Source: a virus (Duplodnaviria > Heunggongvirae > Uroviricota > Caudoviricetes). From it: 52,839 nt of DNA. The position numbers were made by a program. How positions within the stretch are numbered: the first letter of the stretch is position 1; each line of letters opens with the position of its first letter. Location of the stretch: IMG/VR virus record IMGVR_UViG_2880372215_000003; one strand, written 5' to 3'. Positions 9,001 through 12,000 of this stretch are shown here, piece by piece.

Positions 9001-12000
9001 GATGGAAACTGTATTGCATGCACTGAAAGCGATGGGAAAAGCCAATTCTGTTGAACTGGCGGCGCGGCTTGATATCAGCCGTGAAGAAGTTCTTAACGAA
9101 CTGTGGGAACTCAAAAAAATGGCGTTGTTGATAAAACGGGTCACACCTGGTTTCTGGCTGTCGAAGGTGAAGCCGGGGTAACCGAAGGGCAGGCACTACA
9201 ACCTGAAGCGCCGGATGTGGTAACCGAAGAGGTCGCTCCAAAAGTTACCGCAGACATGATGGTTGAGTTTATCGGTCAGGATGGTGCTAAAACGTGTGAG
9301 GAACTGGCGGGTAAGTTCGGCGTCAGTACTCGCAAGGTTGCTTCCACGCTGGCGGTGGTAACCGCAACGGGGCGGCTGGCACGCGTTAATCAGAACGGTA
9401 AATTTCGTTACTGCATGTCGGGGGGTAATTTACCAGCAGATCCGAAAGCCGCGCCGGTAACGAAAAATGATGGTAAGGCCTTTCCTCAGCCAGCAGGTGC
9501 TGCGTTACCAGTCCGGGAAGCCGCAACACAGGAAGAAATTAAAACAGAAACTGTGGCGGACATTGTGCAGCCGTTGCCATCGTTTACCGAAACGCAAGCA
9601 GATGAGCTGATTTTTCCGTCCCTGCGCAGGGCAAACCTGGCGCTGCGCAGGGCGAAAAGTGATGTTCAGAAGTGGGAGCGAGTCTGCGCCGCGCTGCGGG
9701 AGCTGAACAAGCACCGGGATATTGTTCGACAGATTACTGATTCTTCCCGCCGTGTTGTATCGGAAAAGTGATAGCCGGAGGCGCTTATGGCGAAACCTTT
9801 TACACACGAACAGCGTGAAGAACTGAAGGCCCGAATTATCGGGCTGGTACGCAAAAATGAACGCATGACGATATCACAACTGGAGAGAGCGACGGGAGCA
9901 GGCTGGCATTCAGTCAGACGTTGCCTTGTGGATGTACTGGCTTGTGGCGATTTATACATGCCCGGTAAATACGGTGTTTTTACATCAGAACAGGTGTATC
10001 GCGTATGGCGTAAGGCAGCGGAGAAAGCAACCGACCAGACATTGATTCGAAAGTTACCAGACGGAGAAATACGCCGCTACGACAGACAACAGAACATAAT
10101 CTGTGGCGAGTGCCGGAAGAGTGAAGTTATGCTGCGTGTACTGGCGTTCTATCAGGGCAATTTTCAGGAGGCGGTACTGTGAGTGAATTAGCTATCAGGC
10201 TTCAATTGTCGCTGGCATTCGCATCAAAGGAGAATGAGATGACCACTTTTACAAAAGAGCAGTTAATCAGTCATGTTAGTGAAAATGTAAAGGCGATGAA
10301 ATTTGCAGTAAAACAGACAGCATTCAAAAATTCTCTCGAGGCAATTGAGTTGGATTTAGCACTGGCCCTTGTTGCTCAGGCTTCGCTGGAAGCAGAGCCC
10401 GTGCTTTATATGAATCGATTTACCGGAAAGACATTCTCACTGGAAGAGCAACCCGGTGCTGATAAGGAACCGGAAATATACGTGCCGCTATATGCTGCCC
10501 CGCCAGACAGCGCCGCCATGCTTCAGGCTGGAAACTTTCGGGAAAAAAAGGGTTCGTCAACCAATAATTTTCGGGAAATCTCGGAAACGTCAACCAACTA
10601 TCCGGTAACTCTGGATGATTGGATAAGCTGTAGTGAGCGAATGCCGGATGATGGTCAGCACGTAATTATTTTATGTGATGGCGCATTCGTTCTTTATGCG
10701 CAATATCGAGACGGTGAGTTTTTTGATGTAGTCCGTAATGGTGATGAATTTTTCGAAACACAGAGCCGCAATGTAACCGACTGGATGCCGCTACCAGAAC
10801 CGCCGCAGGAGGTGCGCCAATGATCTGGCCTGAAGCCTTTGCAATTACAGGCGTTGCTATAGCTATTGATTTTTTAGTATATGTTATTTGTCGGTGGGGG
10901 TAAAAACGTTCGCCGGGATTCACACCAAAGGAGGGAATATGTCGGATGATATTTCACTGGCAATGGAAGGTGCGCTGGCTGTTATTGCTGTTGTGGGCGT
11001 TTACTGCCTGGTTGTGTTTTTGATGGATCGACTAGGGAACTGAATTCATTACGATATGGGAATTCCCATATCGGGTAAAAACGGTTTGCGGTAAAGCGAG
11101 AGTTAAGTAGAATTGCTGCGGGTGCTTGAGGCTGTCTGCCTCGGGCATGCCACCGTAAGGCAGACAGAGAAAAGCCCCAGTTAACATTACGCGTCCTGCA
11201 AGACGCCTAACATTAATCTGAGGCCAATTTCATGCTAGACACATGTAGGTTAGCCTCTTACGCGCCGAAAGGCAAGGAGAAGCAGGCTATGAAGCAGCAA
11301 AAGGCGATGTTAATCGCCCTGATCGTCATCTGTATTACCGTCATAGTGACGGCACTGGTAACGAGGAAAGACCTCTGCGAGGTACGAATCCGAACCGGCC
11401 AGACGGAGGTCGCTGTCTTCACAGCTTACGAACCTGAGGAGTAAGAGACCCGGCGAGGGAGAAATCCCTCGCCACCTCTGATGAATCAGGCATCCTCAAC
11501 GCACCCGCACTTAACCCGCTTCGGCGGGTTTTGTTTTTTCCTGGCATTCTGGTTTACAATTCGCACGCCAGCCTGAACAACTGGCACCTGCTGCGCCAGC
11601 AGAGACAACCGATGGCGCACGATACCAAATTATACAATTCTGATGATTCTGCCGTCTTTGCCAGCAGGCGCGGACGGTGTTTTTACGCATTCAAATCTGA
11701 CTGGTACCAGCATCCCCCATGCACTGAAGAACAGGCCGAATGGCTCATTCAGTGTTACCGCAGGCGCGGATGCGAGGTTAAAAAAGCCCTTAGCCTCGAC
11801 TACCGTCACTGGATAATCTCCGTCAGGCTCCCTTACTCCGAACGGCCACCGCGTCCGTCCCGCACATTCCAGCAACGGATCTGGAGGTAATGTGCGGGTA
11901 TTACTTCGACCTGTTCTGGTACCGGAACTCGGTCTGGTTATCGTTAAGCCAGGCCGTGAATCAATGTCAGCATTCCATAACGGCAGAATACTGGTGGAGC

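Follow-up and report, generated by a model that had tools for sequence, protein, structure and literature searches.

[quoted passage not shown] There is little doubt that the host of this module is a degraded lambdoid prophage of E. coli O157:H7, in which it occupies the nin region. The locus is already known: O157:H7 chromosomes annotate it as hokD, a 551-nt region being 100% identical to many of these, and hokW-sokW, which is about 91% identical, has been characterised. Homologues were found in 4747 of 5426 E. coli genomes, with up to 11 matching places per genome. A DUF551 gene and two tiny ORFs lie upstream, the other neighbours being a 92-aa ORF and a DUF968 gene, and hok shares its strand with the replication, nin and Q genes of the prophage. 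The latter has decayed (the integrase gene is split by ISEc8, exo carries an IS, and portal and tail genes are frameshifted) and lacks stx; the hok/mok/sok locus itself shows no IS, frameshift or broken pairing, and its two promoters, its two ribosome sites, tac, fbi and the terminator are undamaged. The ORF at 11612-11890, downstream of hok, belongs to PHROG 1212, the function of which is unknown; its identification with K-12 rem was considered and rejected, since it has no similarity to rem.

The 51-aa product matched Pfam PF01848 (HOK_GEF; E 9.7e-24, 83.2 bits against a cut-off of 22) and PHROG 251, "MokW-like host killing" (E 2.8e-33); the NCBIfam Hok models matched as well, with scores under their cut-offs. 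RefSeq names the gene hokD, and in RefSeq records this 51-aa CDS is the sole mark at the locus, mok, sok and the regulatory RNA elements being unannotated. An earlier note on this DNA had proposed a plus-strand locus for a type I toxin of the Hok family, with an antisense sok gene. The Hok-like ORF that it had recognised (11289-11444, plus strand) is confirmed by the Pfam match, and the sequence features of such a locus are all present. Of the span given for the locus, 11150-11539, the end was correct; a start at 11150 halves the 5' hairpin and omits the mRNA 5' end (11120) and the promoter -10 (11108-11113).

Table 1. Predicted features of the hok/mok/sok locus, with the evidence for each
Feature	Position	Strand	Description	Evidence
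Putative hok promoter	11086-11113	+	-35 TTGCGG (11086-11091), 16-nt spacer, -10 TAGAAT (11108-11113)	Sequence reading, -10 conservation
Predicted full-length hok mRNA	11120-11538	+	~419 nt, from conserved 5' GGGUGCUUGAGG to terminator T-run	Rfam RF01794 start, fold
tac element	11120-11131	+	mRNA 5' end, partner of fbi	MFE pairing, covariation
Conserved 5' stem-loop	11132-11167	+		MFE fold, Rfam alignment, RNAalifold consensus
Predicted Sok antisense RNA	11164-11240	-	~77 nt	Ends transferred from annotated K-12 sokC by alignment
mok Shine-Dalgarno	11220-11223	+	GAGG, 8 nt before mok ATG	Sequence reading
mok ORF	11232-11444	+	70 aa, in frame with hok, common stop codon	ORF call, mokC equivalence
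sok promoter	11247-11275	-	-35 TTGCCT (rc 11270-11275), 17-nt spacer, -10 TAACCT (rc 11247-11252)	Conservation, hokW-sokW identity
Candidate ucb box	11251-11267	+	TAGCCTCTTACGCGCCG	R1 model
hok Shine-Dalgarno	11274-11279	+	AAGGAG, 9 nt before hok ATG	AGGAG conserved in nearly all loci
hok toxin gene	11289-11444	+	51 aa + stop, MKQQKAMLIALIVICITVIVTALVTRKDLCEVRIRTGQTEVAVFTAYEPEE	Pfam, PHROG, RefSeq
3'-UTR hairpin	11452-11473	+	GGCGAGGGA-GAAA-TCCCTCGCC	MFE fold
fbi (fold-back inhibition) element	11494-11506	+	CCTCAACGCACCC, complementary to mRNA 5' end	MFE pairing, covariation
Intrinsic terminator	11513-11539	+	7-bp GC-rich stem, TTCG loop, T-run	Terminator scan

The -35 of the putative hok promoter is weak and unconserved; of 67 homologous loci, 52 have TATAAT, TATATT or TAGAAT aligned with its -10, and in every case a conserved GGG start follows at a distance of 6-7 nt. 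A generic sigma-70 scan called neither this promoter nor that of sok (8/12 and 7/12 consensus matches), so that the assignment of both rests on conservation and homology. The ends of the hok mRNA were likewise assigned by homology. The covariance model RF01794 matched from 11120 on the plus strand with 116.9 bits (gathering score 59) over model positions 1-157, and this full-length match is the only one of its kind in the window. The family is named "sok", yet the match lies on the hok-sense strand; in practice the model describes the leader that contains sok. Folded in full, the predicted mRNA has an MFE of -176.7 kcal/mol (z = -8.3 against shuffles) in a structure closed by pairing of its 5' and 3' ends, with the hok Shine-Dalgarno sequence at 11274-11279 partly paired. 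The 3'-UTR hairpin at 11452-11473 is kept in K-12 hokD and in hokW, with changes in the stem, and the terminator at 11513-11539 is identical in K-12 hokD; the terminator scan (stem 11513-11530, then the T-run) agrees with the earlier observation of a terminator after hok. Matches to isrK, rsmX, CsrC and snoRNA models in the region all scored below threshold in the Rfam scan and were dropped as chance or simple hairpin resemblance.

The 5' stem-loop has the arms CTGTCTGCCT (11132-11141) and AGGCAGACAG (11158-11167), which are paired in the MFE structure, the Rfam model and the RNAalifold consensus. By our estimate a perfect 10-bp stem is expected by chance about once per 52.8 kb, and the reality of the hairpin therefore rests on conservation and covariation. 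Of the eight stem pairs in the RNAalifold consensus, three show compensatory changes that recur in two or more sequences, and one position of the stem is AU in 17 sequences, UA in 14, GU in three and GC in one; G11134-C11165 in the window is unique as a variant of an A-U/U-A pair. SNPs that set this copy apart from hokW and other paralogues include G11134/C11165 and those in the CCACCGTAA loop. The hairpin reported upstream of the Hok ORF is real by virtue of these compensatory changes, but it had been taken for the fold-back of the hok mRNA; it is instead the conserved 5' stem-loop, and the fold-back is formed by 11120-11131 with 11494-11506.

In the MFE structure all 12 nucleotides of tac pair with fbi, with one bulged C, fbi being located 50 nt beyond the hok stop codon. 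In 66 loci the best partner of tac is found 45-58 nt past the stop codon and varies jointly with it: GGGUGC...GAGG occurs with CCUC..GCACCC, GGGCGC...GAGA with UCUC..GCGCCC, and GGCGC with GCGCC. The mean energy of cognate pairs in these loci was -20.0 kcal/mol versus -17.7 kcal/mol for permuted pairs, and none of 5000 permutations was as stable; the two elements covary across Enterobacterales. The diversity for this test came from a profile scan of species-representative genomes. A single-protein scan of IMG/VR returned near-identical loci only, in which tac and fbi are invariant, and was uninformative for covariation. Going by the R1 model alone, the candidate ucb box could pair with tac after 3' processing, and RNAduplex gives this duplex -18.5 kcal/mol; the pairing is absent from the MFE structure of the 3'-truncated RNA, and a crude covariation test gave no signal for it, the cognate mean being no better than the permuted mean.

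The mok Shine-Dalgarno sequence lies within the Sok-complementary region, and GAGGC at this ribosome site is invariant in a 37-locus alignment. The mok ATG precedes that of hok by 57 nt; K-12 mokC and hokC are also exactly 57 nt apart and have one common stop codon. Of 72 distinct loci 63 could be scored: 42 have the 57-nt spacing, 19 a spacing of 58 nt and two one of 56 nt. In 67 of 80 IMG/VR relatives mok is in frame. The ATG at 11232 is best read as the mok start, and in-frame mok as the majority state and not an anomaly. The earlier note was right that an in-frame ATG at this position opens an ORF (70 aa) ending at the hok stop; its view of this as an extended ORF instead of mok does not fit the spacing shared with mokC and two-thirds of the scorable loci.

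A single-stranded 5' tail of about 10 nt, then a long hairpin and finally a U-rich 3' end make up the predicted Sok RNA, which spans the mok Shine-Dalgarno sequence and start codon and, folded alone, gives -32.9 kcal/mol (z = -5.6). The 17-nt spacer of its promoter is invariant in 67/67 loci, in which the -35 is TTGCCT or TTGACC and the -10 TAACCT or TAATCT. This promoter is identical to that of hokW-sokW, where the replacement of TAGGTTA by other sequence (primer YO-421) abolished antitoxin activity; the sokW RNA is reported to be 71 nt long and complementary to the hokW leader (PMC8621323). The earlier expectation of an antisense RNA around 11200-11300 stands as regards the sok gene but not as regards its extent, which we predict to be about 11164-11240 instead.

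Alignment with hokD/relF and hok/sok loci, which had been proposed as a check, revealed homology to K-12 hokD, K-12 hokC, hokW-sokW and R1-type loci. The closest characterised relative is hokW-sokW of Sakai prophage 5 (Sp5), an Stx2 phage of E. coli O157:H7 (Takada et al. 2021; PMC8621323), a functional toxin-antitoxin system that is activated on prophage induction and the antitoxin activity of which is partly dependent on RNase III and Hfq (PMC8621323). Over the stretch that runs from the promoter through fbi, the two loci are about 91% identical in nucleotide sequence, with identical tac, fbi, mok frame and hok ribosome site, the same extended Sok hairpin, the same PHROG and a similar position among the early-region genes of a lambdoid prophage. 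They differ in the C-terminus of Hok (...FTAYEPEE here, ...FVDYESEK in HokW), in the 5' hairpin, which here has a compensatory G-C for A-U, and in the intrinsic terminator, which here directly follows fbi, where the hokW locus diverges; furthermore, the present prophage is defective and without stx.

K-12 hokD (relF) is the third gene of relBEF in the Qin prophage. Its Hok is identical at 50/51 residues, with I16L as the single change, there is near-identity in the 3' UTR, fbi and terminator, and a DUF968 gene (ydfU in K-12) follows in both. The homology, however, reaches no further upstream than about 15 nt from the hok ATG, and relE stands in place of the promoter, tac, 5' hairpin, sok gene and mok start. 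Judged by these alignments, K-12 hokD is a truncated derivative and the prophage copy described here is the intact form. The absence of an adjacent relBE had been noted correctly: neither relB nor relE is directly upstream of hok, where the DUF551 gene, two small ORFs and the full leader are found. It is not a peculiarity of the present locus, as the earlier note implied, since it is K-12 hokD that has lost the whole leader. The nearest type II pair is PaaA2/ParE2 at 5559-6030 on the minus strand, 5 kb from hok. RefSeq describes these genes as a RelE/ParE toxin and a RelB antitoxin; a relBE 5 kb upstream was rejected, the proteins being ParE_toxin and PaaA2 and showing no BLASTP similarity to K-12 RelB/RelE. 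The pair is a paaR2-paaA2-parE2-type module, not relBE.

K-12 hokC/mokC/sokC (gef) has an identical tac and the same in-frame 57-nt arrangement with one stop, and sokC is annotated at the homologous position. Its Hok protein is 84% identical, its Sok hairpin is without the 18-nt extension, and IS186 interrupts the K-12 copy downstream, because of which its fbi is lost. The paradigm, hok/sok of plasmid R1 and related IncF plasmids, has the same architecture and order of elements, the tac-fbi pairing being kept through covarying sequences. The Hok of the present locus has no more than about 39% identity to that of an IncFII plasmid with an R1-type locus, and the R1-type mok is out of frame (58 nt), its tac is GGCGC as opposed to GGGUGC, its 5' stem-loop is longer and its Sok hairpin shorter. 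The R1 locus is moreover plasmid-borne, with a demonstrated role in post-segregational killing.

The sequence and structure elements of the module are in place, most of them with conservation or covariation behind them. From homology we infer the transcription, processing, toxicity and biological role of this copy, and the following mechanism is drawn from R1 hok/sok, K-12 hokC/mokC/sokC and Sp5 hokW-sokW. The weak promoter would yield a hok mRNA that is stable and about 419 nt long, in which tac, at the extreme 5' end, would be locked to the 3' fbi, so that the full-length mRNA would be neither translated nor bound by Sok. Slow 3' trimming would take off fbi and allow the RNA to refold, whereupon ribosomes would start at mok (ATG 11232); translation of mok would open the hok ribosome site (11274-11291), and the 51-aa Hok, an inner-membrane peptide, would depolarise the membrane. 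The stronger convergent promoter within the mok-hok junction would meanwhile supply a short-lived Sok RNA of some 71-77 nt, the single-stranded 5' tail of which would pair with a loop at the mok start. The resulting duplex would block translation of mok, and hence of hok, and be cut by RNase III. Once the supply of Sok ends, the pool of stable mRNA would be translated, as happens in the Sp5 paralogue on RecA-dependent prophage induction. By the same homology the module would serve as a lysis aid on induction and/or stabilise the prophage; since the host prophage has decayed, a lysis-assisting role of the Sp5 type may be inapplicable here.

Three other readings of the locus must be weighed. The single 70-aa ORF at 11232-11444 might itself be the toxin, with no mok/hok pair and with Sok blocking it directly, without translational coupling. 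Its ATG, with a GAGG ribosome site of its own, is indeed in frame, the long ORF is annotated as "MokW protein" in some phage records, and at in-frame loci any translation product of mok necessarily contains all of Hok. We consider this quite improbable, because the frame is not conserved: close relatives with the same Hok have a spacing of 58 nt (out of frame, 68 aa) or 56 nt (19 aa), whereas the internal AAGGAG-N9-ATG of hok is kept in essentially all loci. K-12 hokD, moreover, retains only the 51-aa ORF, and the 51-aa hokW ORF alone is toxic (PMC8621323). At in-frame loci such as this one the 70-aa Mok-Hok product may nevertheless be a membrane-active isoform, in which case the "coupling" would be partly direct. 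Alternatively, the module could be a silent relic, its elements intact but unexpressed or without effect (a state that has been proposed for the chromosomal hok loci of K-12), hitch-hiking in a decaying prophage. The state of the prophage is in keeping with this, as are the IS-inactivated hokA, hokC and hokE of K-12 (PMC12214031), its truncated hokD, the leader truncations that close relatives show independently of one another (at a relE junction, by IS insertion and in other ways) and reports, cited in bioRxiv 10.1101/2025.08.07.668861, of intact chromosomal hok loci of E. coli without post-segregational killing. Set against these are the undamaged locus itself, which is identical across many O157:H7 genomes, and the paralogous hokW-sokW, functional at 91% identity and transcribed on both strands (PMC8621323); on balance we regard a relic as unlikely.

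Very little probability attaches to the reading of Hok as mainly a passenger of the early-right (pR) operon, like hokD in K-12 relBEF, for which its own promoter and Sok would be irrelevant. While hok is co-oriented with the replication, nin and Q genes, and production of HokW requires RecA-dependent induction (PMC8621323), hokW mRNA as well as sokW RNA is found before induction, and the amount of hokW mRNA shows no increase afterwards (PMC8621323); in addition, the conserved -10 is situated just ahead of the conserved 5' end, and the fold-back needs exactly that end. Within the preferred reading, a complete hok/mok/sok module, the pR operon could still have a part. As hok is co-directional with it and the sok promoter points head-on, antiterminated read-through from pR on induction could shut off or titrate Sok and so release Hok, a rather doubtful proposal which we put forward tentatively. 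If true, it may supply the trigger mechanism left open by the hokW-sokW study, and the loss of Sok through transcriptional interference or excess sense RNA would turn the module into a built-in sensor for derepression of the prophage.

Beyond annotation quality the significance of the locus is small. It does provide useful corrections, in that K-12 hokD/relF is truncated and the copy here complete, and that an in-frame mok is common. The several copies present in E. coli O157:H7 could cross-talk with hokW-sokW, which bears on Stx-phage induction and the timing of lysis.

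The locus is a complete, textbook hok/mok/sok module. Rfam model RF01794 matches in full at 11120-11294 on the plus strand (116.9 bits; gathering score 59), the only such match in the whole window; the model is named 'sok', but the strand matched is that of hok, and what the model describes is therefore, in effect, the leader containing the sok gene. The Hok peptide matches Pfam HOK_GEF (83 bits, E 9.7e-24) and PHROG 251, 'MokW-like host killing' (E 2.8e-33). The Hok ORF, hairpin, terminator and in-frame ATG described in the earlier note were all found in the sequence, but its start at 11150 splits the hairpin in two and leaves out the 5' end of the transcript.

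Coordinates and basis of the toxin, terminator and antisense features
Feature	Position	Strand	Sequence or basis
hok	11289-11444	+	51-aa peptide MKQQKAMLIALIVICITVIVTALVTRKDLCEVRIRTGQTEVAVFTAYEPEE
Intrinsic terminator	11513-11530, then T-run	+	sequence and terminator scan
sok promoter	-35, revcomp 11270-11275; -10, revcomp 11247-11252	-	-35 TTGCCT, 17-nt spacer, -10 TAACCT; sequence
Predicted Sok RNA	about 11240 to 11164	-	annotated K-12 sokC ends carried over through alignment

For folding, the full-length hok mRNA was set at 11120-11538. Its minimum free energy (MFE) is -176.7 kcal/mol (z = -8.3 relative to dinucleotide-shuffled sequences), and what closes the fold is a duplex of the opening 12 nt, the tac element (GGGUGCUUGAGG), with the fbi element at 11494-11506 (CCUCAA-C-GCACCC), 50 nt past the hok stop codon. 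This tac-fbi pairing is the hok fold-back, a role that had been assigned to the hairpin at 11132-11167. The latter, with a 10-bp stem (arms CTGTCTGCCT, 11132-11141, and AGGCAGACAG, 11158-11167), is the conserved 5' stem-loop that immediately follows tac. Compensatory pairs in a 37-sequence leader alignment back this stem-loop: one pair occurs as AU (17), UA (14), GU (3) and GC (1, the window), and a second as CG (22), UG (11) and UA (4). In the R1 model, tac refolds onto ucb. Sterically, a duplex of tac with the candidate ucb box (11251-11267) could form in this RNA, at -18.5 kcal/mol; it is absent from the MFE structure of the 3'-truncated RNA, and no covariation was seen in a test of the tac-ucb pairing. 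The two hairpins of the hok 3' UTR (11453-11534, plus strand) give a sub-threshold match to isrK, the Rfam model of a Salmonella prophage sRNA (27.7 bits versus a gathering score of 50, E 0.0014), which is probably mere hairpin-plus-terminator resemblance.

Relatives were drawn from IMG/VR (80 loci found with the Hok protein), from species-representative genomes (79 loci found with a five-sequence Hok profile) and from plasmids (three loci). Both tac and fbi are invariant among the close relatives from IMG/VR. The diverse set holds 66 distinct tac/3'-UTR combinations with 13 tac variants; in nearly all of these loci the best tac partner lies 45-58 nt past the stop codon, and it varies along with tac. 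GGGUGC..GAGG is matched in the pairing by CCUC..GCACCC in Escherichia, GGGUGC..GAGA by UCUC..GCACCC in Kluyvera, GGGCGC..GAGA by UCUC..GCGCCC in Photorhabdus, GGGUGCUCUGGAUC by GAUCCAUGAGCACCC in Mixta, and GGCGC..GAGG by CCUG..GCGCC in the R1 type. The mean for cognate duplexes is -20.0 kcal/mol, versus -17.7 for permuted ones, and none of 5000 permutations reached the observed mean; since this test ignores phylogeny, more weight falls on the explicit changes seen on both sides of the duplex. Most loci have a TAnAAT-like hok -10, and AGGAG-N9-ATG before hok is nearly universal. R1-type or near-identical E. coli hok loci also turned up, mostly on short contigs, in assemblies labelled Veillonella, Acinetobacter, Xanthomonas, Ferruginibacter, Streptomyces and Oscillibacter (L096, L106, L115, L155-L157 in our collection), for which contamination or mis-binning is the likeliest source, not real distribution.

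The spacer of the sok promoter is invariant in 67 of 67 loci. The predicted Sok RNA would fold (-32.9 kcal/mol, z = -5.6) with about 10 nt at its 5' end left free, ahead of a long hairpin and a U-rich end. The stretch complementary to it includes the ribosome site of mok (GAGG, 11220-11223) and its ATG (11232). The predicted 5' tail is the complement of the loop CUAGACA, which lies at the start of mok and carries a putative YUNR-type motif as in R1 hok/sok. The Sok terminator hairpin carries an 18-20-nt GC-rich extension, GCGUCCUGCAAGACGC (11183-11215, both strands), present in prophage hokD/hokW-type and some Kluyvera loci and missing from hokC and R1-type loci.

Reading hok from the ATG at 11232 gives a 70-aa ORF. 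The earlier note correctly saw that this ATG is in frame, and set it against an out-of-frame mok; it is in fact mok in its commonest form. K-12 mokC (16751-16960) and hokC (16751-16903) have a common stop codon and differ by 57 nt, so the annotated MokC is an in-frame N-terminal extension of HokC, and the spacing in the window is likewise 57 nt. Among 72 distinct loci, 42 have this spacing, 19 have 58 nt (out of frame, the R1 type), two have 56 nt and nine were unscorable; the 80 IMG/VR relatives comprise 67 in frame, nine with a 19-aa mok and four without a leader. The frame flips between near-identical loci, which argues that translation through the region matters and the Mok product does not.

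The closest characterised copy is hokW-sokW of Sakai prophage 5, which we located in Stx2 converting phage I, the record containing the published primers. From promoter to fbi the two are about 91% identical, with the same tac, fbi, sok promoter, mok frame and hok ribosome site; they differ in the 5' hairpin loop and one compensatory pair, the Hok C-terminus and the sequence downstream of fbi. HokW is toxic, RecA-dependent in its production and located in the inner membrane; sokW neutralises it from its own promoter, with a partial contribution of RNase III and Hfq, and replacement of the sokW -10 region abolishes protection (Takada et al., PMC8621323). After mitomycin C treatment sokW RNA is lost, and deletion of hokW-sokW halves phage release (Takada et al., PMC8621323). 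In the window hok points the same way as the early-right operon, against which the sok promoter is directed; read-through interference may therefore lie behind the loss of Sok, a testable but tentative idea.

The locus is already known: it occupies a known place, is close kin to an experimentally studied copy, and its surrounding 551 nt are 100% identical to many E. coli O157:H7 chromosomes, whose annotation names the 51-aa ORF 'type I toxin-antitoxin system toxin HokD'. RefSeq leaves mok, sok and the RNA elements unmarked, and what value remains lies in annotating these and in asking how prophage induction brings about the loss of Sok. A homologue is present in 4747 of 5426 complete E. coli genomes (median 2, maximum 11 places per genome) and in 78 phage records, chiefly lambdoid or Stx phages, labelled 'host killer protein', 'MokW protein', 'gef' or 'HokD toxin'. 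The neighbourhood of hokD in strain PV15-279 is a lambdoid prophage, ordered immunity region, replication genes, DUF1627, DUF977, DUF551, small ORF, hokD, hypothetical ORF, DUF968, RusA, Q, lysis and head-tail genes. This prophage is decayed: ISEc8 splits the integrase, an IS3 element adjoins an exonuclease gene that is truncated, and frameshifts affect the portal, DUF6645 and tail-completion genes.

Two tiny hydrophobic ORFs, 10820-10903 (27 aa) and 10939-11043 (34 aa), both plus strand, immediately precede the hok promoter; Pfam and PHROG searches gave no match for either. The former has a homologue upstream of hokW, because cloning primer YO-432 (PMC8621323) begins at the equivalent ATG. 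The antisense sRNA DicF is found at 4223-4274 on the minus strand (RF00039, 76.7 bits versus a threshold of 48), with dicB and ydfC close to this position in the matching O157:H7 record. Downstream of Q are three tandem tRNA genes (14210-14456, plus strand), followed by a full-length STnc100 sRNA match (15235-15406, plus strand; RF02076, 93.4 bits versus 47). Stx phages carry tRNAs and stx at this position; the matching O157:H7 record has no annotated stx gene in this region.

In K-12, hokD is preceded by relB-relE. RefSeq names a 'RelE/ParE' and 'RelB' pair 5 kb upstream of hok (5559-6030, minus strand); relBE is ruled out here, there being no similarity to K-12 RelE or RelB, and the Pfam matches are to ParE_toxin (E 2e-16) and the antitoxin PaaA2 (E 1e-19). 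With a 144-aa HTH-like (PaaR-like) ORF upstream, the three genes (5559-6485, minus strand) look like a paaR2-paaA2-parE2-type system.

Similarity between K-12 hokD and the window starts only about 15 nt 5' of the hok ATG, and the common part (coding region, 3' hairpin, fbi and terminator) is nearly identical. K-12 hokD is therefore a reduced copy, without the promoter, the tac element, the 5' hairpin, sok and the start of mok that it once had, and the intact form is the one in the window. Other leaderless copies (L045/L049, L008, L009; about 1480-1500) break at the same point as K-12 hokD (L002), ...ACAGGAGAAGCAGGCT, about 15 nt 5' of the ATG. Upstream, the K-12 type has relE, L008 an unrelated gene on the minus strand and L009 an IS transposase, three different sequences in all. 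These copies reflect either one common truncated ancestor or a recurrent breakpoint. The K-12 hokC, hokD and hokE mRNAs reportedly undergo A-to-I editing that recodes a C-terminal-proximal Tyr to Cys, in hokD at a level of 6% and by TadA (PMC12214031; bioRxiv 10.1101/2025.08.07.668861). The hok Tyr47 codon in the window, the counterpart of the edited hokD site, lies in the same UACG context (11427-11430, plus strand), in a stretch identical to K-12 hokD.
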